NCBI GenBank assembly: GCA_964642915.1
Contig: CAZXPE010000002.1
Span: 1 to 46,580, forward strand
DNA from: an uncultured bacterium
GTDB taxonomy: Bacteria > Methylomirabilota > Methylomirabilia > Rokubacteriales > CSP1-6
Direction: 5' to 3'
Length of the DNA stretch: 46,580 bases
Part shown: one piece after another, positions 3,073 through 31,397 of the stretch
How positions within the stretch are numbered: the stretch's first letter is position 1
How the letters are laid out: every line of letters begins with the position of its first letter
Translations under genes and position numbers: made by a program
Notes under the pieces: generated by a model
Databases searched by the model: none
Told to the model about the DNA's origin: nothing
The model's input: only the letters and a program-made list of their open reading frames with translations

Positions 3073-4659
3073 TCATCTCCCTGACCCCGTTCCGGGGCCG
3101 CCCAGCAGCTCTCGCACCTTCCGAGAGAGAGTGTCGGGAGCGAACGGCTTCTGGAGGAAACCGCTCGCTTCTCCGGCGAGATCGCCGGGCCCGAGGCGGT
3201 CGCCGGTGTACCCCGACATGTAGAGCACCTTCACCTCGGGACGCCTGGAGAGAAGCTCACCGGCCAGTTCAGTCCCTCTCATCCGTGGCATCACCACGTC
3301 TGTCACCAGGAGGTCGATCCTGCCCTGGTGCCTCTCGGCAGTCTGAATCGCCTCGCGGCCATGACGAGCTTCCAGCACCTTGTATCCGCGCGACTCGAGG
3401 ACCTCGCGGGCAAGCTCCCTCACGGCGTCGTCGTCTTCCACCAGCAGGATCGTCTCTGACCCCCTTGCGGCTTCCTCCCACGCCTCCTGGGGTCCAGCGC
3501 CCGCGCCGGCGCCACCGGCCCGCGGCAGAAAGATCCTGAACGTCGTTCCTCGCCCTATCTCGCTTGAGACCCTGATGTGCCCCCCGCTCTGCCTGACGAT
3601 ACCATACACGGTCGCAAGACCCAGCCCGGTTCCTTTGCCGGGCTCTTTAGTCGTGAAGAACGGCTCGAACATGTGGGAGAGGGTCTCAGCGTCCATTCCC
3701 AACCCGGTGTCTCTCACCGACAGGAGCACGTGAGGCCCCGGGCTGGCTTCGGGATGGCTGGCGGCTTCAGCCTCGTTCACCTCGACGTTTGCAGTCTCGA
3801 TCGTGAGCCGCCCCCCGTCGGGCATGGCGTCGCGGGCGTTCACCGCCAGGTTCATGATTATCTGCTCGATCTGAGTCGGGTCGGCCTCCACACGCCAGAG
3901 CGCCAGGCCGGGAGCGGTCTCCAATCTGATATCCTCTCCGATCAAGCGCTGAAGTATGGCCGCCGCGTCGGCGACGATGGCGTTGAGGTCGAGGAGCTTG
4001 GGCTGAAGCACCTGCTGGCGGCTGAAGGCGAGGAGCTGCCTCGTGAGCCCTGCTGCCCGCTCGGCTGTCTTCCCGATCAACTCGGCGTCACGGCGCAGCG
4101 AGTCGTCCTGCCCGAGGCGGTTCAGCAGTATGTGAGCGCGCCCGCTGATCACCGTAAGGAGGTTGTTGAAGTCGTGGGCCACGCCTCCCGCGAGCCGCCC
4201 CACGGCCTCCATCTTCTGCGCCTGGCGAAGCTGGGCCTCCAGATCCTTGCGGGCGGTGATGTCCTGAGAGACGGCCACGAAGTGGGTGATCGCTCCGCTC
4301 GAGTCCTTCACCGGAGTGATGCAGTGCTCGACGGTGAAGAGGCTTCCGTCTTTCCGCCTGTTGACCAGTTCTCCACGCCAGACCTCTCCGGCGAGGACCG
4401 TCCGCCACATCTTCTCGTAGAACGAGCGGTCCTGCTTCCCGGATTTCAAGACTCGCGGGGACTGGCCAAGGACCTCCGCACCCGAGTAGCCGGTGACCCG
4501 CTCGAAGGCGGGATTAACGTAAATGATCTTCCCGTCGGTATCAGTGACCATTATCCAGTCGGCAGTCTGCTCCACCGCCGAGACCAGGATGGCGTCGCGG
4601 CTCTCCACCAGATCATGGAACCGCTCTTGGAATTCGCCAGCCTCGCTCTTCGGCTCCAT
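3073..4659 (-). CDS. Soluble PAS-domain hybrid sensor histidine kinase / response-regulator receiver
   Basis: 528 aa, no TM segment. PAS ([26 protein letters not shown]), H-box ([16 protein letters not shown]), HATPase_c (DTGLGMD...[13 protein letters not shown]), C-terminal receiver ([11 protein letters not shown]...[13 protein letters not shown]). Confidence 0.9.
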
Positions 4660-4673
4660 ACGGCGCTACTCCA

Positions 4674-5849
4674 TCATTGGAGCTGGGTGCCTGCCGCTTC
4701 TCCCCTCACCGCGATGGCGATCTTGTAAAGGAGAGTGATTATCAGGAAGCCGAGGGCCCAGACGCCGATAACGATCGATATCTCGGGAAGCGTAGGCGCG
4801 TAGCGCGTCACGTCGCCGAGCGGAGAAGGCACAAACCCGCCGACGATCAGGCCGACCCCCTTGTCTATCCAGAGCGACAGGAAGACCGCAGCGCAGGCCG
4901 CCGCCAGGAGCCTCTCGTTCTCCCTGAAGCGCGGCGGGATGAGCAGGACCAGCGAGACAGCGGCCAGGAGGGCTGAGGCCCGCATCCAGGGGGCGAGCGG
5001 GGCCTCTCCTTCCAACCCCAGGAAGAGAAACTCGAAGTGGGCCATGTGCTCCGGGATCTGGCTGTAGAAGACTGTGAACAGCTCCACAGCCGCGAAGAAG
5101 ACGCTTACCAGCATGGTGTAGGTGACTACGAGCGCCAGCTTCTGGATGGCTTCGCGGCCGGGATCGAACTTCGCCGCCCCGCGGACGATCATGGCCAGGA
5201 GGATCAGGAGCGCGGGGCCCGAGGCGAAGGCGGAGGCCAGGAAGCGCGGGGCCAGGAGCGCTGTCAGCCAGAACGGGCGGCTGGCGAGGCCGCTGTAGAG
5301 GAACGCCGTCACCGTGTGGATGCTGACGGCCCACGGGATGGAGAGGATGATGACGGGCCTGAGCCATCCCGGCGGCGCCGCTCCCCTGCGCTCGGCTCCC
5401 AGCGTTACGAAGGCAATGACGGCGTTGAGAGCGAGATAACCGTTGAGTGAGAGCATGTCCCAGAACATGACCGAGTTGAACGTCGGGTAGAGGATCACGT
5501 TCAGCGCCCGCATGGGCTGGCCCATGTCAACGAAGATGAACAGGAGGCACATGGTCACCGCTGAAATGGCGAGCAGCTCGCCCAGGATCGTGATCTTCCC
5601 GAACGCCTTGTAGTCGTGCAGGTAGTAAGGCAGGACGACAACGACCGCCGAGGCCGCCACCCCCACCAGGAAGGTGAACTGGGCGATGTAGAGCCCCCAC
5701 GTCACGTCCCGGGAGAGCCCCGTGATCCCCAATCCGAGCTGGAGCTGTCTGAGATAAAACAGGAAGCCGACGGCGATGACGGCGCAGAGGGCCCCGACCC
5801 AGGCCCAGTACCTCCGGTCTCCAATGAGCGCCTTCTCAAACATCGACAT
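4674..5849 (-). CDS. dsrP: DsrP, NrfD/PsrC-type polytopic membrane quinone-interacting subunit of DsrMKJOP
   Basis: 391-aa multi-TM protein (LRQLQLGLGITGLSRDVTWGLYIAQFTFLVGVAAS...). Last gene of the M-K-J-O-P order. Confidence 0.85.
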   Translation of the reverse strand: MSMFEKALIGDRRYWAWVGALCAVIAVGFLFYLRQLQLGLGITGLSRDVTWGLYIAQFTFLVGVAASAVVVVLPYYLHDYKAFGKITILGELLAISAVTMCLLFIFVDMGQPMRALNVILYPTFNSVMFWDMLSLNGYLALNAVIAFVTLGAERRGAAPPGWLRPVIILSIPWAVSIHTVTAFLYSGLASRPFWLTALLAPRFLASAFASGPALLILLAMIVRGAAKFDPGREAIQKLALVVTYTMLVSVFFAAVELFTVFYSQIPEHMAHFEFLFLGLEGEAPLAPWMRASALLAAVSLVLLIPPRFRENERLLAAACAAVFLSLWIDKGVGLIVGGFVPSPLGDVTRYAPTLPEISIVIGVWALGFLIITLLYKIAIAVRGEAAGTQLQ

Positions 5850-7024: not shown

Positions 7025-8639
7025 CCGCTGCGCCCCCGTTCGTCTTGAATGGCTGGCCGCGCAGGTCGGTGGTCCGCTCCTTCTCACCCTTCATCACGAG
7101 AGCGTTGCCGACCAGCTCGTGAACTCCCGCCACCTCGGTCCCCGGCACCCAGTACTCCATGAGGGGCGGCAGCGTGGCCTTGTCTATGGCGCAAATGCAC
7201 GCCAGCAAGTTCACCCCGAACCTGTCGCGGACGTGCCTGACGGCGTTGGCCCTGGGGAAGCCTCCCCTCATTCTCATCTCGAAGTTCTCGTCTGTGCCGA
7301 GCCCCGCCCCGCTCCCGCAGCAGAAGGTGCGCTCCCTGATGGTGTTCTCCGGCATGTCGTGGAAGCGGTTCACGACGTTTCTCAGGATATAGCGAGGCTC
7401 CTCGATGAGGCCCATGGCGCGGGCAGGGTTGCATGAGTCGTGGAAGGTCACTGTCCAGTGATCGTTGCGGCTGGGGTCGAGCCTTAGCTTCCCGCTGTGG
7501 ATCAGGTCGGCGGTGAATTCGCAGACGTGGACCATCCTGGTTGAGCGCGCGTTCTCGAACCTTGTCCCTGTGATCGGGGAAACCGGCTCCTCCAGGAAAT
7601 CGGCGGGGCCGTTCATGGTGTCCATGTACTGGTGGACGACGCGCCACATGTGGCCGCACTCTCCGCCGAGGATCCACTTCACCCCCAGGCGCTTGGCCTC
7701 GGCGTAGATCTTGGCGTTCAGCCGCTTCATCATCTCGTGCGATGTGAAGAGGCCGAAGTTCCCCCCCTCTGAGGCGTAAGCGCTCAGGGTGTAGTCCAGC
7801 CCGATCTCGTGGAACATCATCAGCGCGCCTACGAGGGTGTAGTAATGGGGAGTCCCGAACGTCTCCGCCGACGGGATGACGTAGAGGACCTCGGCGCCTT
7901 TCTTGTTGATCGGCGCCTCCACGCGGATGCCGGTCAGTTCCTCCAGCTCGTCCACGGCGAACTCGATGTTCTGCTTGAACGCGTGGGGCTGGATGCCGAG
8001 ATGGTTGCCCGTGCGGTAGCAGTTGGCCGCAGGCTCCAGGATCCAGTTGGTGTTGCACCCCACGAGGGTCAGAAGCTCTCGCCCCATCATGGTGATCTCA
8101 GCGGTGTCGATGCCGAACGGGCAGAAGACCGAGCAACGGCGGCACTCAGTGCACTGGTAGAAGTAGTAGAACCACTCCTTGAGGACGTTCTCGGTAAGGT
8201 CCCTCGCTCCGGCCAGCTTCCCGAAGAGCCGTCCGGCGGCGGTGAAGTACCGCCTGTACACCGAGCGGATCAGCTCGGCCCGCATGACCGGCATGTTCTT
8301 GGGATCGCCGGACCCTATGTAGAAGTGGCACTTGTCGGCGCACGCCCCGCACCTGACGCAGATGTCCATGAAGAGGCGGAAGGAGCGGAATTTATCGAGC
8401 CGCTCCTTCATCCCGTCAAGCACGATCTGCTTCCAGTTCTCGGGAAGCTTCCAGTCAGCATCGTGGGGCTGCCACGCCCTCGGGTTGGGGAGCCCGAGGT
8501 ACTCGAGGTGTTTAGGCGCGGCGCTGTAGCAGTACGTCCCCTTGCTAAACTCGACGGGAGTGTCCTGCCAGTCCTTCCGTGGAGGCCTGTAGCTGATCTG
8601 AACCAGCTCCTCAGGCTTAGGGACGTCTTTCCTCGCCAT
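7017..8639 (-). CDS. dsrK: DsrK, HdrD-like catalytic Fe-S subunit (CCG domain)
   Basis: Fe-S motifs CVRCGACADKC and CTECRRCSVFCP, plus CCG-type motifs (...FHDSCNP..., TFCCGSGAG). Start taken at ATG 8639 (MARKDVPKPEE), preceded by GAAGGAA and 3 nt after the dsrM stop. Confidence 0.9.
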   Translation of the reverse strand: MARKDVPKPEELVQISYRPPRKDWQDTPVEFSKGTYCYSAAPKHLEYLGLPNPRAWQPHDADWKLPENWKQIVLDGMKERLDKFRSFRLFMDICVRCGACADKCHFYIGSGDPKNMPVMRAELIRSVYRRYFTAAGRLFGKLAGARDLTENVLKEWFYYFYQCTECRRCSVFCPFGIDTAEITMMGRELLTLVGCNTNWILEPAANCYRTGNHLGIQPHAFKQNIEFAVDELEELTGIRVEAPINKKGAEVLYVIPSAETFGTPHYYTLVGALMMFHEIGLDYTLSAYASEGGNFGLFTSHEMMKRLNAKIYAEAKRLGVKWILGGECGHMWRVVHQYMDTMNGPADFLEEPVSPITGTRFENARSTRMVHVCEFTADLIHSGKLRLDPSRNDHWTVTFHDSCNPARAMGLIEEPRYILRNVVNRFHDMPENTIRERTFCCGSGAGLGTDENFEMRMRGGFPRANAVRHVRDRFGVNLLACICAIDKATLPPLMEYWVPGTEVAGVHELVGNALVMKGEKERTTDLRGQPFKTNGGAADE

Positions 8640-26900: not shown

Positions 26901-28379
26901 TTGATCGACCGCTTCCTGACTATTCACGGCCACTTCTACCAGCCGCCGCGGGAGAACCCGTGGACCGGGGAGGTGGAGGTCCAGGACGGCGCCGCCCCGC
27001 ACCACGACTGGAACGAGCGGATCACCGCCGAGTGCTACGCCCCCAACGCGGCCAACCTTGAAAAGATCTCCTTTGACTTTGGTCCTACCCTCCTCTCCTG
27101 GCTCGGGCGCAGTCATCCCGAAACACACAGGAAAGTTCTTGACGCTGACAGGGCCAGCAGGGCCGCCCACGGCGGTCACGGCAATGCCATCGCCCAAGCG
27201 TACAACCACATGATCCTGCCGCTGGCTACGCTGAGGGATAAAGTCACACAGGCGCGCTGGGGGATCGAGGATTTCCGCCGCCGCTTCGGGCGCGACCCCG
27301 AGGGAATGTGGCTCCCCGAGACTGCCGCTGACCGCGAGAGTCTGGCTGTCCTGGCAGAATGCGGCGTCAAGTTCACGATCCTGGCCCCATCTCAGGCCCG
27401 GCGGGTCAGGCGTCTGAAATACGGCCGGTGGAAAGATGTGGAGGGAGGACGGATCGACCCAAGCCGGGCCTACCGATACGCGACGGCCGGCGGAAAGGGT
27501 CTCGCCCTCTTCTTCTACGATGGCCCGATCTCAAGGGCCATCGCCTTCGAAGGCGCGGCCTCTCACGGCGAGGCTTTGAGGAACCGGCTCATGGCGGGCT
27601 TCTCTGCTGAGCGCCCCTGGCCCCAGCTCGTCCACGCCGCCACCGACGGAGAATCCTACGGCCACCACACCCGCTTCGGTGACATGGCTCTGGCGGCTGC
27701 CATCGCGCAGATCGAGTCTGAGGGGACAGCGAAGCTCACCAACTACGGGGAGTTCCTTGCTGACCACCCCCCCACCCACCAGGTGGAGATCATTGAAGGG
27801 ACCTCATGGAGCTGCGCCCACGGGGTGGAGCGCTGGCGCTCCGACTGCGGCTGCCGGGCGGGGCGCCCCGACTGGCACCAGCGCTGGCGCGCTCCGCTCC
27901 GAGGGGCGATGGACTGGCTCAGGGACCAGCTCGACCTCTTCTACGAAATGCGGATGGGAGCGCTCGTCAAGGACCCGTGGGCAGCCCGCGACGATTACAT
28001 TCACGTGGTCCTGGACCGCTCTCCTGAGAGCAGGGCCGCCTTCTTCGCCCGGCACCAAGAGACGCCTCTCGACGACGCCCGCCAGGTCACGGCGCTCAAG
28101 TTCCTGGAGCTTCAACGCCAGCGCCTTCTTATGTACGCCTCCGACGGGTGGTTCTTCGACGAGATCTCAGGACTCGAAACCGTCCAGGTCCTCAAGCACG
28201 CTGCCAGGGCGATCGAGCTGGCAGGAAGCCTGGGTCTCAGCGGGCTTGAAAGAGAGTTCGTTCGCAGGCTGGCTGCGGCCCCTTCAAACGACCAGGGGTG
28301 CGGCGACGGCGCCCAGGTCTACCAGCGGCTCGTGCTGCCCGCCAGGGCGACGGCGGATCCTCTCCGGGATCGCGCGTGA
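26901..28379 (+). CDS. Glycoside hydrolase family 57 protein (alpha-glucan-active)
   Basis: 492 aa, TTG start. MIDRFLTIHGHFYQPPRENPW... and ...WLPETAAD...ATDGESYGHH are typical GH57 blocks. Confidence 0.8.
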   Translation: MIDRFLTIHGHFYQPPRENPWTGEVEVQDGAAPHHDWNERITAECYAPNAANLEKISFDFGPTLLSWLGRSHPETHRKVLDADRASRAAHGGHGNAIAQAYNHMILPLATLRDKVTQARWGIEDFRRRFGRDPEGMWLPETAADRESLAVLAECGVKFTILAPSQARRVRRLKYGRWKDVEGGRIDPSRAYRYATAGGKGLALFFYDGPISRAIAFEGAASHGEALRNRLMAGFSAERPWPQLVHAATDGESYGHHTRFGDMALAAAIAQIESEGTAKLTNYGEFLADHPPTHQVEIIEGTSWSCAHGVERWRSDCGCRAGRPDWHQRWRAPLRGAMDWLRDQLDLFYEMRMGALVKDPWAARDDYIHVVLDRSPESRAAFFARHQETPLDDARQVTALKFLELQRQRLLMYASDGWFFDEISGLETVQVLKHAARAIELAGSLGLSGLEREFVRRLAAAPSNDQGCGDGAQVYQRLVLPARATADPLRDRA

Positions 28380-28665
28380 GGCCCCGGTGTGCCTCCGGTA
28401 GTGGTACGTTTTCCTAAAGCTGGGAAATCGTCGCCCCCTGAACGTTCGATGCGCCGGCCCCCCAGTTCGAGCGAAACCGCGCGGCCCTAGCTGAAGAAGG
28501 GAACCAGCCGCTCGAAAGTGCAGGTGCCGCAGCGGGCTGGTAAACCCTACTGGCCGCAATAGGCGTGGAACTTGCAAGACTCAGGAGTGGGCGAAACTCA
28601 CATTCCGTATGACAAGGGGGGCCGGAGAGTGAAACCAAAGCCGTTGGGGACGAAAAAACGAGGGG

Positions 28666-28695
28666 TTGACAAGCGTACGAGATTCAGGCTTAAAT
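28666..28695 (+). promoter_or_regulatory. Candidate sigma70 promoter for the cassette genes
   Basis: TTGACA (28666-28671), 18-nt spacer, TTAAAT (28690-28695). GAGGGGGAGGG lies upstream of ATG 28725. Confidence 0.5.
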
Positions 28696-28724
28696 CAGGT
28701 GCCTGTCGAGGGGGAGGGCCCGAC

Positions 28725-28931
28725 ATGAACAAACTGGCACGAGAGACCGCCTCTGATCTTCTGAAGAAAGAGCCTGATTTGGTCAAGACTTTCGACGAGT
28801 TCTCGGCTGCCGAGGAAGAATTTGCCCAGATGTTGGACCTGATGGGTCTCCGCCACGTCGCGGTCGAACTTCCGCCTGCGGGCAATGCAGAAGGCTCCCT
28901 GCATGGGAACGTATCAGGCTCTAATCGATAA
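28725..28931 (+). CDS. Small acidic hypothetical protein (68 aa), cassette cargo
   Basis: Internal ATG of ORF 28572..28931 with a strong SD: MNKLARETASDLLKKEPDLVKTFDEFSAAEEEFAQMLDLMGL... No recognisable family. Confidence 0.45.
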   Translation: MNKLARETASDLLKKEPDLVKTFDEFSAAEEEFAQMLDLMGLRHVAVELPPAGNAEGSLHGNVSGSNR

Positions 28932-29910
28932 GACCGAACGAGGTCAGATCGACGGCAAGATTCTTCAACAGGAACGCATCAAGAAGATAGTCAATATCCA
29001 AGGTCTCACTGACCGACCTCTCGTCGTTTACTTCTCCAACTTCATCAAGGGCGGGAACGTCCCTAATAATTCCATCGACGATACCGATGTCACCGCCTTC
29101 TCTGATTTGATCGAGGGGGTTCCTGGGGACTCGCTCGACGTACTCATTCACAGTCCAGGCGGCCTCGCTGAGTCCGCTGAGCGAATTGTAGGATTACTTC
29201 GCGCCAAGTTCTCTAGCATCCGCTTCATCGTTCCTCACACTGCCTACAGCGCGGCCACGTTGTTAACCTTTTCCGGAAACCAGATTCTCATGGACGACCG
29301 TTCGGCGCTCGGCCCCGTGGACCCGCAAATCATGTTCCGCGATCCGATCACGGGTGAGGTCTATTTTGTTCCGTCCCAAACAATTACTCTGGGGTTCCGG
29401 CGCGCAATCGATGCCTTGAGAGGAGGGCAACCAGAGGTGCTCAAGGCCTACCTTCCGATGCTGAATAAGTTGAACATGCATCTCTTTGAGATATGCAATA
29501 ACGCCGAAGAACTTACCCGGACACTGGCCCTTGACTGGCTGACCCGCTATATGTTCAACGGCCAGGCGGACGCTACGGAAATGGCCAAGAACATCACAGG
29601 GTTTTTCAAGGACCACTCCCAAACTCGTTCGCATCGACGCGGCATTGGTATCGTGAAGGCCAAGGAATTGGGGCTAACCGTCGTCGACATGAGAGACATC
29701 CCGAAACTGCGGCAGGCGATCTGGGAGCTGTACTGCGCGGTGGAGTTTTTTGTCGATCAAAGCGATACCTCCAAGTTCTACGAAAACACCTTCGGTGTCA
29801 GCTGGCGGCGCCGTTTTCAGGCAGTCGCAGTTCAAATCCCCGTTCCCGTGATGCCGGGCCCTCCGCAGGCTCCTCCCCCGAAACAGCGCCCCGGCGGGGG
29901 GAAGCGGTAG
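28885..29910 (+). CDS. Clp/SppA-fold serine protease of the SDH (serine dehydrogenase proteinase) type
   Basis: 341 aa. ...DRPLVVYFSNF...DSLDVLIHSPGGLAESAERIVGLLRAKF...VPHTAYSAATLLTFSGNQILM... (Clp-fold Ser-protease core), Pro-rich basic tail. The true start may be the second ATG at 28903 (GAAGG upstream). Confidence 0.6.
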   Translation: MQKAPCMGTYQALIDKTERGQIDGKILQQERIKKIVNIQGLTDRPLVVYFSNFIKGGNVPNNSIDDTDVTAFSDLIEGVPGDSLDVLIHSPGGLAESAERIVGLLRAKFSSIRFIVPHTAYSAATLLTFSGNQILMDDRSALGPVDPQIMFRDPITGEVYFVPSQTITLGFRRAIDALRGGQPEVLKAYLPMLNKLNMHLFEICNNAEELTRTLALDWLTRYMFNGQADATEMAKNITGFFKDHSQTRSHRRGIGIVKAKELGLTVVDMRDIPKLRQAIWELYCAVEFFVDQSDTSKFYENTFGVSWRRRFQAVAVQIPVPVMPGPPQAPPPKQRPGGGKR

Positions 29911-30068
29911 GGCTGAGGGAACCAGCGCCAAGAGCTTCCCCTTGGTTCGTTCTCCCCGCTTTGGGGGTCAAGTGGATTTCTATCCTGAGAGCGAGAAGTG
30001 GAAGTGGGGGATCTGTTAGGGAGTAAAGACTTTCGGCATAACGTACCACTACCGTGCCTCCCCCCGTC

Positions 30069-30098
30069 TTGACACCTCCGCCCCACGCCTGGTAGGGT
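30069..30098 (+). promoter_or_regulatory. Candidate sigma70 promoter for pntAA-pntAB-pntB
   Basis: TTGACA (30069-30074), 18-nt spacer, TAGGGT (30093-30098). Lies 8 nt to the right of the cassette target duplication. Confidence 0.3.
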
Positions 30099-30236: not shown

Positions 30237-31397
30237 ATGAAACTGGCAGTGCCGCGAGAAGTTCGGCCCGGCGAGCGCCGCGTCGCTCTGGCGCCGGAAT
30301 CTTGCAAGAAGCTCATACAGGCCGGCCTCAGCGTGGCGATAGAGGCCGGCGCCGGGGATCAGGCTTTTTATCCTGACGAGGCGTATCGGGAGGCGGGTGC
30401 CGCGGTCGAAAGCGACCCGGCGGCTCTCCTCGGGCTGGCTGACTTCGTGCTGAAGGTGAACCCGCCGGCGCTCGGCGGGGCTGCCGGGAGGAACGAGGTC
30501 GAGTGGATGCGGCCGGGGACGCTTTTCCTCGCCTCGCTGATGCCGCTCAGGAACCTCGACGCCGTCAGCGCGCTGGCAGCGCGGAAGATCACGGCGTTCT
30601 CCACAGACGCGATCCCTCGCACGACCCGCGCCCAGGCGATGGACACGCTTTCCTCGATGGCGAACATCGCGGGCTACAAAGGGGTGCTCCTCGCTGCTGC
30701 CGAGCTGAACAAATACTTCCCGATGCTGATGACTGCCGCTGGCATGGTCTTCCCGGCCAGGGTGTTCGTGATCGGGGCCGCAGTCGCTGGACTCCAGGCG
30801 ATCGCCACTGCGCGGCGGCTGGGCGCCAACGTGGTGGCGACCGACGTGAGGCCGGAGGTGAAGGAGCAGATCGAGAGCGTGGGGGCGAAGTACGTCGGGA
30901 TCGAGCTGAAAGAGAGCGCCTCCGCCGGGGGCGGCTACGCGAAGGAGCTGTCTGAAGAGGACAAGGCGCGGCAGCGCGAGCTGCTCGCCGAGCAGTGCGC
31001 CCAGGCCGACGTCGTGATCACGACTGCGCTCATCGGCGGCGTCTTCGCTCCGAAGCTCATCACAGCCGAAGTGGTGCGGAAGATGAGACGAGGCACTGTG
31101 ATCGTGGACCTTGCGGCCGACGGCGGCGGGAACTGCGAGCTGTCGCGCCCCGGCGAGACCGTGGCAGAGAACGGCGTCACGATCCTTGCCCCCCTGAACC
31201 TTCCGGCAACAATGCCGACCCATGCGAGCCTGCTCTTCTCGCGCAACCTCACGGCGTTCCTGCTGGCGTTCACTAAAGACAAGGCGTTCCACCTCGACCT
31301 GACCGACGACATCCAGAAGGGGGCGGTCATCACTCACCAGGGTGAGGTCGTGAACGCGCGAGTCAAGGACGCGATGCAGAGCGGCTCACGGAATTGA
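30237..31397 (+). CDS. pntAA: NAD(P) transhydrogenase subunit alpha part 1 (dI, AlaDH/PNT domain)
   Basis: 386 aa. MKLAVPREVRPGERRVALAPE..., Rossmann motif VIGAAVAGLQAIATARRLGA. Confidence 0.9.
   Translation: MKLAVPREVRPGERRVALAPESCKKLIQAGLSVAIEAGAGDQAFYPDEAYREAGAAVESDPAALLGLADFVLKVNPPALGGAAGRNEVEWMRPGTLFLASLMPLRNLDAVSALAARKITAFSTDAIPRTTRAQAMDTLSSMANIAGYKGVLLAAAELNKYFPMLMTAAGMVFPARVFVIGAAVAGLQAIATARRLGANVVATDVRPEVKEQIESVGAKYVGIELKESASAGGGYAKELSEEDKARQRELLAEQCAQADVVITTALIGGVFAPKLITAEVVRKMRRGTVIVDLAADGGGNCELSRPGETVAENGVTILAPLNLPATMPTHASLLFSRNLTAFLLAFTKDKAFHLDLTDDIQKGAVITHQGEVVNARVKDAMQSGSRN

Follow-up and report, generated by a model that had tools for sequence, protein, structure and literature searches.

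A probable non-autonomous IS1-family insertion cassette with a small acidic protein gene and a ClpP-like protease gene, lying between a GH57 gene and pntA in a Rokubacteria-like genome

Introduction

What is the 1657-bp segment (positions 28397-30053) that separates a glycoside hydrolase gene from pntA in contig CAZXPE010000002.1 (assembly GCA_964642915.1) of an uncultured bacterium assigned to the Rokubacteriales, and how did it arrive there? The whole stretch of DNA that was analysed, 46,580 nucleotides in length, is called the window throughout, and positions are counted from its first letter. The original prediction described this segment as a cargo cassette without transposase, bounded by terminal inverted repeats and a target duplication, and mobilised in trans by a transposase encoded elsewhere. 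The analysis reported here leads to the view, held with a probability of about 0.85, that the segment is a non-autonomous mobile insertion cassette (MIC) of the IS1 family of insertion sequences (ISs), carrying passenger genes. Loci fetched for comparison are labelled L001, L002 and so on where they have to be told apart.

MICs, MITEs (miniature transposable elements with inverted repeats) and transporter ISs are recognised derivatives of ISs, which can be activated by the cognate transposase (PMC3129680). Among the MICs described are MIC231 from Bacillus cereus and the qnrD mic elements found in Proteeae (PMC3129680; PMC3913671), and the Tn3-derived inverted-repeat miniature elements (TIMEs) constitute a related class (PMC4133298).

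Ends of the insert

Both boundaries were read directly. On the left side, ...GGT is followed by the octamer GTGCCTCC (28389-28396) and then by GGTAGTGGTACGTT (28397-28410), the left terminal inverted repeat (IRL, plus strand). On the right side, AACGTACCACTACC (30040-30053) is followed by the second copy of GTGCCTCC (30054-30061), CCCCGTC and TTGACA. The right terminal inverted repeat (IRR), oriented on the minus strand and given here as its plus-strand letters, is the perfect reverse complement of IRL. The two repeats show 14/14 identity and both start with GGnnnTG, while the direct repeats are identical at 8/8 positions, abut both ends and belong to the 8-9 bp class of target duplications. 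IRL is of the IS1-family type; ends of the form GGnnnTG are a feature of this family, which it has in common with IS6/IS26 (PMC6807381). A repeat finder returned arms of 15 nt instead of 14 at these ends, since the C that closes the left octamer happens to pair with the G that opens the right octamer; identical flanks are obtained only when the boundaries are read as 14 plus 8.

The 14-mer GGTAGTGGTACGTT is found in two places of the window, inverted to each other, and the two further matches need three mismatches each. The octamer alone is unremarkable (four occurrences in the window versus 3.1 expected). The combined structure was evaluated by a chance test in which the whole window was scanned for inverted ends with at least 12/14 matches that lie 60-5000 bp apart and are directly adjoined by 8-bp direct repeats without mismatch. 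The pair described above is the sole match, and 200 first-order Markov random windows gave a mean of 0.055 pairs with at least 12/14 and no pair with 14/14. Boundary reading and chance test confirm the perfect 14-bp repeats and the 8-bp duplication originally described at 28389-30061, and this structure is real and not due to chance. The GC content of the DNA between the duplications is 0.561, versus 0.644 and 0.631 in the two neighbouring stretches of 5 kb, a composition that is that of foreign DNA.

Gene content of the insert

Only two open reading frames (ORFs) with support are present inside the element, both on the plus strand. The first one (28725-28931) encodes an acidic protein of 68 aa (12 D+E versus 7 K+R), the presumed partner of the second product, for which no match was found in Pfam, NCBIfam, PADLOC or PHROG. 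The second one (28903-29910) encodes a ClpP-like serine protease of the SDH type with 335 aa, which matches PF01972 with 63.4 bits (gathering cut-off 31.3). Its score against the NCBIfam equivalog NF047768 is 62, far under the cut-off of 250, and the protease is therefore a member of the family, not that equivalog. The homologues of this protein start at the residue matching 28903; consequently, the protease gene and the small ORF have 29 nt in common, and the in-frame ATG located upstream, at 28885, is probably not used as its start. The protease also matches PHROG 11747, of unknown function, at 1e-48. Among solved structures, the one closest to it in sequence is that of the ClpP-fold protease domain from the NfeD protein PH1510 (E 1.6e-4), the match to Pfam NfeD1b_N being weak, and the conserved serine lies in an AYSAAT motif.

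Between IRL and these genes there is a non-coding leader (28411-28665) that ends at a promoter-like motif, TTGACA-N18-TTAAAT (28666-28695, plus strand), after which the Shine-Dalgarno sequence GGAGG is found at 28713-28717. The cassette had been said to possess its own promoter. The motif is indeed there and is conserved in the window, in L001 and in L002, but a consensus promoter scan does not call it because the second hexamer has a T at position 2; from its sequence, the motif may be regarded as the putative promoter of the cargo. A non-coding trailer (29911-30039) follows the protease gene and contains a weak terminator-like hairpin at 29956-29975. Neither the leader nor the trailer had a further copy elsewhere in the window or among the loci fetched. 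Rfam gave no match within the element; a sub-threshold snoRNA match falls in pntA, outside it. Searches by tblastn with four IS1 transposase sequences revealed neither a transposase nor a remnant of one in the element, in its leader or in the whole window. ORFs, PF01972 and tblastn thus agree with the description of an element that encodes a 68-aa acidic protein and a Clp-fold serine protease only, without transposase.

A second copy and the cargo as passenger of IS1-family elements

The same two genes are found in locus L001, with 87% nucleotide identity over 1355 nt. There, the cassette lies between GGTAGTGGTACGTT (2974-2987) and the inverted end GGTAGTGGTACGAG (4445-4458), and its flanks, AGTGATTT and CGTGATTT, match at 7/8 positions. 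The insertion site, between a gene for a GAF/histidine-kinase (GAF/HisKA) protein and a DksA/TraR gene, is unrelated to that of the window. The leaders that adjoin the left end are partly homologous in both copies, the one in the window having approximately 100 nt extra in the form of an indel, and the right trailer of L001 is around 70 nt shorter than that of the window. The L001 cassette was also devoid of transposase or remnant in tblastn searches. Two copies without a transposase, each at a site of its own, make it most probable that there were at least two insertions of the transposase-less form.

Another IS1-like terminus, GGTAGTGSGCTATTT, precedes the left end of the L001 cassette by about 100 nt (2869-2885) and is also found upstream of the two-gene module in L142 (444-459). 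No convincing partner end was found for it; the L001 cassette may lie inside another IS1-type element.

More distant versions of the module are carried by elements that do encode a transposase. Plasmid NZ_CP041717.1 of Acidiphilium multivorum (L253) contains a 2634-bp element at 3133-5766, with terminal inverted repeats GGTAATGTCTCAGTTTGAAA / GGTAGTGTCTCAGTTTGAAA and the 8-bp duplication CTCGGCTT. Its genes comprise one annotated as IS1 family transposase, a 68-aa ORF that is overlapped by the gene for a PF01972 protease, and two small ORFs. In the metagenome contig L142, an ORF for an IS1 InsA-like zinc-finger protein and an InsB-like ORF are placed directly downstream of the module, and a GGTAGTG... 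sequence is found upstream of it. According to these two arrangements, the module is a recurrent passenger of IS1-family elements. As a separate observation, a gene pair for an MbcA/ParS-Xre antitoxin and a RES-domain toxin directly adjoins the module-bearing element of the plasmid (L253 2312-3150).

The existence of elements such as L253 and L142, in which an autonomous IS1-type transposase and the cargo travel together, leads to consider another history for the window: an autonomous transporter IS of the IS1 family could have been inserted between the two host genes, and its transposase gene could have been deleted later in place, leaving an immobile relic. Around 255 nt of unexplained non-coding DNA between IRL and the promoter motif of the cargo could be the place of a former transposase gene. 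However, L001 provides a second copy that lacks a transposase, has a partly homologous leader and shows its own duplication at a different site, so that the loss of the transposase most simply preceded both insertions. Moreover, both copies are free of detectable transposase remnants, and the perfect repeats (14/14) and duplication (8/8) of the window point to a recent event. A relic formed in place is therefore considered improbable.

Autonomous elements and MITEs with the same terminus

The terminus was searched for with the pattern GGTAGTGGTACGTTWTSC in 185,579 representative genomes of GTDB. The 42 loci obtained are strongly clustered in a few genomes, including seven contigs in a metagenome-assembled genome (MAG) of Verrucomicrobiia, seven contigs in a Bacteroidota MAG and five matches in a Planctomycetia MAG.

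In the copies from Planctomycetia and Pirellulales, an IS1-family transposase gene is situated about 1.3 kb inside the terminus. An intact element of 4311 bp with four genes was delimited in a Planctomycetia MAG (L257, 3197-7507). Its IRL is GGTAGTGGTACGTTTTGC, identical to the window 14-mer over 14 nt; its IRR, GGTAGTGGTACAAGTTGC, agrees at 11 of the first 12 positions, and both ends are flanked by a perfect 8-bp duplication, GAAAGGGG. The transposase of this element (303 aa) passes the IS1 model of Pfam, PF03400, with 32.7 bits against a cut-off of 24.1. A transposase 98% identical to it (L227) matches NF033558 under the cut-off and has more than 4000 homologues; among the 120 listed, many are named IS1 family transposase by their sources. 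A complete element of 2463 bp makes up locus L259, where the ends of the contig are the ends of the element; its termini are a close variant, GATAGTGGTACAGTTTGC, and the transposase that it encodes shares 75% identity with the L227 one. The same right end is present in L258, 19 nt after the stop codon of the transposase gene. ISs with matching ends, which the original prediction had proposed to look for, are therefore known from L257 and L259, and they encode IS1-family transposases.

In three further Planctomycetia copies (L227, L231 and L218) the right end was not found, other ISs having been inserted there; the intact copy L257 supplies it. Nested structures were observed in the Planctomycetia MAG, in which an IS66-family element is inserted in or next to IS1-family copies; this element is of full length in L231 (2680-5841), and a deleted form of about 430 bp is present in L227 (6945-7374).

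The family assignment of the ends deserves some attention, given that GGnnnTG is also found in IS6/IS26 elements and that IS26 itself has 14-bp terminal inverted repeats and 8-bp target duplications (PMC6807381). In that case the cassette could owe its movement to cointegrates formed by an IS26-like transposase, and the transposases of L257 and L227 do show a weak match to the IS240/IS6-type DDE domain PF13610, at around 18 bits with a cut-off of 27. On the other hand, the transposases of both complete elements found with this terminus pass the IS1 model, many of the homologues listed carry the IS1 family name, the cargo travels with genes of the IS1 InsA/InsB type in L142 and L253, and no IS6-type transposase was seen adjoining this terminus. 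An origin from the IS6/IS26 family is, on this balance, very unlikely.

Apart from the autonomous elements, at least 16 of the 42 loci are MITEs of 91-174 bp with the 18-bp consensus GGTAGTGGTACGTTTTGC as terminal inverted repeat, and the 14 nt of the window IRL correspond to one end of many of them. The MITEs with a perfect 8-bp duplication are seven in number (GATGGGCG, AATTAGCG, GAAAAGTT, CAAACGCG, ATGCAGGC, CGTTAAAT and TCCGGAGC), and three more have a duplication of 7/8. The further copies of the inverted repeat that were to be looked for are thus represented by the L001 cassette, at another locus, and by numerous MITEs that have this terminus together with 8-bp duplications.

The MITEs are distributed among the loci L211-L252 (for example, L221 1693-1866, L230 4469-4642, L219 785-911 and L252 158-248). 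A type of 174 bp is multicopy in the Verrucomicrobiia MAG and another of about 130 bp is multicopy in the Bacteroidota MAG, while Acidobacteriota and Verrucomicrobiota have a type of 91-95 bp. Across the phyla it is the terminus that is conserved, and the interiors differ.

Several matches were discarded. Several GTDB matches with ...GTTATGC... are coding coincidences, as in L215, where the sequence encodes the 'VVRYADD' motif found in the reverse transcriptase of a group II intron. When viral contigs were scanned, the bare 14-mer, a pattern too short for this use, gave single chance matches among those listed, and the 18-mer gave two matches inside a conserved gene that is not an IS. An apparent right end in L133 is a chance match in the proline-rich C-terminal tail of a protease.

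The insertion site

The left flanking host gene (26901-28379, plus strand) encodes a GH57/DUF3536 glycoside hydrolase according to Pfam and its stop codon is located 9 nt before the duplication. The right flanking host gene, pntA, also identified by Pfam (30237-31397, plus strand), encodes the alpha subunit of the transhydrogenase. The best matches of the GH57 protein, at 74-77% identity, include MAGs of Rokubacteria (Methylomirabilota-like). The closest ones are likewise of about 485 aa, from which it follows that the insertion left the GH57 gene untruncated. Most GH57/DUF3536 homologues of the Rokubacteria/Methylomirabilota have approximately 792-800 aa, versus around 485 aa in the window and its closest relatives; short and long forms coexist in this lineage.

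The cassette is absent from the GH57-pntA junction in both relatives examined. In the closest GH57 relative found (L254, 76% identical) the gene order is glgB-GH57-pntA-pntAB-pntB, and the stop codon of the GH57 gene overlaps the start codon of pntA (ATGA), with no insert between them. In a member of the Rokubacteria (GCA_016179965.1, L255) the same junction contains a different two-gene insert on the opposite strand (7471-8139), which encodes a retropepsin-like aspartic protease of 119 aa and a protein of 99 aa. This junction seems to collect small accessory cassettes. A RES/Xre pair was also observed in L255, a few kb from the junction. As for the proposal that related strains could carry an empty site, L254 does join GH57 to pntA without the cassette, but the exact empty allele, GGCCCCGGTGTGCCTCCCCCCGTCTTGACAC with a single GTGCCTCC and no insert, was not seen among these loci.

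The insertion had been placed just upstream of the pntA promoter, with the duplicated octamer 8 nt from its TTGACA. This hexamer starts at 30069 and the right octamer ends 7 nt before it, so the distance has to be corrected. The motif TTGACA-N18-TAGGGT is present at that place, but the promoter scan makes no call there, and it is to be taken as a weak motif only.

With the site described, the remaining view, in which the repeats are a coincidence, an integron cassette, a product of site-specific recombination or an assembly artefact and the two genes are ordinary residents, is already effectively refuted: although 14-bp inverted repeats separated by a few kb or less are by themselves not very rare in 46 kb (our own estimate), no 14/14 repeat with duplication arose in the 200 random windows, the terminus recurs with 8-bp duplications in dozens of independent loci, the composition of the insert is foreign, the nearest relative lacks it and, integron attC sites and recombinase att sites are not known to produce terminal inverted repeats with 8-bp direct repeats on their outer sides.

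Proposed mobilisation in trans

In the proposed mechanism, a DDE transposase of the IS1 family, supplied from another copy, would bind the GGTAGTGGTACG... ends of the cassette. A staggered 8-bp cut would be made in the GH57-pntA spacer and the cassette would be inserted there, the repair of the cut then duplicating GTGCCTCC. The cassette itself would constitute one self-contained operon, made up of the promoter-like motif, the Shine-Dalgarno sequence, the gene for the 68-aa protein and the overlapping protease gene. Since no IS1-family transposase is encoded in the 46.6 kb analysed, we infer, and do not observe, the mobilisation in trans in this host. The corresponding claim of the original prediction is favoured by the L001 copy, the matching IS1 ends and the relative without insert, and the part that concerns this particular host stays at the level of a reading of the sequence.

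Several results weigh against the interpretation of the segment as an IS1-family MIC. Besides the lack of a transposase in the window, the duplication in L001 is imperfect (7/8), and the cassette has only the outer 12-14 nt in common with the autonomous elements, the subterminal sequences being different. The genomes in which this family of ends was found (Planctomycetota, Verrucomicrobiota and Bacteroidota) are outside the Rokubacteria/Methylomirabilota-like lineage of the window. The exact empty-site allele was not among the loci found, and the closest relative, only 76% identical in GH57, has a different junction. With regard to the cargo, neither protein matched the known and candidate defence models of PADLOC-DB v2 at E values up to 0.1, and a literature search on PF01972 / serine dehydrogenase proteinase yielded nothing on function.

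Settings and possible role of the cargo

Relatives of the protease with 60-90% identity are found on short metagenome contigs, in each of which a small ORF lies just upstream and overlaps the protease gene, and the genes around the module are unrelated from one contig to another. This arrangement was recorded in L001, L002, L003, L124-L128 and L130, and the distant relatives L140, L142, L253 and L210 have a small ORF in the same position. The inverted repeat of the window is not present in the close homologues L002, L003 and L124-L127, which indicates that the two-gene module moves by other routes too. A scan of the GTDB genomes with the window protease as single protein gave no relative, and exact-protein look-ups of this protease and of pntA gave none on record.

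Among the distant relatives, some occupy accessory positions of prophages: a nin-like region of lambdoid type carried by a Klebsiella plasmid, a Mu-like phage of Shewanella and the Gordonia phage BeeGee. Others are located on plasmids, as isolated pairs among housekeeping genes or next to an IS3-type integrase, and one has a TIR effector of the CAP12/Pycsar type on one side and a ResIII helicase on the other.

Two of the loci have inverted repeats of another kind around the module. In L002, an AT-rich inverted repeat of 33 nt (GCCAATATTGCAAACTTTGCG..., 55-87 / 2706-2738), 82% complementary, brackets 2.7 kb in which the small-ORF/protease module is accompanied by two small ORFs and by a peptidase of the S24 (LexA/CI-like) type; this repeat showed no clear target duplication. 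In L140, an AT-rich contig, a perfect GC-rich inverted repeat of 34 nt (1371-1404 / 3863-3896) brackets 2.5 kb with genes for an XRE-type helix-turn-helix protein and for a distant small-ORF/protease pair, plus two further ORFs of 135 and 176 aa, and no duplication was seen there either.

The protease might act on its small partner or be controlled by it, and both together could form a selfish or defence-type accessory module, a plausible but speculative role suggested by the analogy with NfeD/stomatin and by the settings in prophages, plasmids and, once, beside defence genes. A stronger version, in which the small ORF and the SDH-type protease would be an undescribed selfish or defence module that spreads across phyla as a recurrent passenger of IS1-family transposons, with or without a transposase of their own, and as an accessory gene pair of prophages or plasmids, is put forward tentatively and seems to us rather doubtful. 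In such a case, it may take the form of an abortive infection, superinfection exclusion or addiction system, with a protease that may be held in check by its 68-aa partner or may process it.

Relation to known systems and implications

The window element resembles the described MICs in its IS-type terminal inverted repeats, its target duplication, its passenger genes unrelated to transposition and its lack of a transposase, and the movement of elements of this kind needs the transposase of a cognate IS. It differs from them in two ways. First, the described examples use other ends (MIC231 derives from the IS4-family element IS231), whereas the ends here are of the IS1 family; second, the cargo is a small ORF with an SDH-type protease and not a resistance or metabolic gene.

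With IS1-family elements it shares the GGnnnTG ends and the 8-bp duplication. Its complete relatives L257, L259 and L253 encode a PF03400 (IS1) transposase together with passengers, unlike the window element, which has no transposase. The classical IS1 of E. coli has 768 bp, encodes InsA/InsB with a frameshift and usually generates a duplication of 9 bp, and the ISMhu11-type elements are long members of the family. The MITEs are comparable in their terminus GGTAGTGGTACGTTTTGC, their 8-bp duplication and their non-autonomous nature; they are, however, short and non-coding, while the window element has 1657 bp and an expressed-looking operon of two conserved genes.

As regards the cargo, the system formed by NfeD (PH1510) and stomatin is similar in that a ClpP-fold protease, with a Ser-Lys pair in NfeD, is encoded beside a dedicated partner. 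The partner in the window is a soluble acidic protein of 68 aa instead of stomatin, and there is no membrane domain. The NfeD protease cleaves its operon partner; cleavage of the partner by the cassette protease would be an analogy only.

In terms of the organism, the segment would represent a recent horizontal insertion in a genome of the Rokubacteria/Methylomirabilota type, at the junction of a gene of glycogen metabolism and pntAB. In a wider context, a short terminus links a clade of IS1-family elements that bear passengers, MITEs that are multicopy in several environmental phyla and a two-gene cargo found travelling on transposons, plasmids and prophages, and GGTAGTGGTACG... together with an 8-bp duplication could serve as a signature for annotation. 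Taken as a mobile element, the cassette is ordinary, given that MIC, MITE and transporter IS are already accepted categories. It would be a MIC of IS1-family origin with an uncharacterised cargo. This cargo offers a compact candidate module for phage defence or addiction, and the finding would gain greater interest if it were true that the two genes constitute a new system of this kind.

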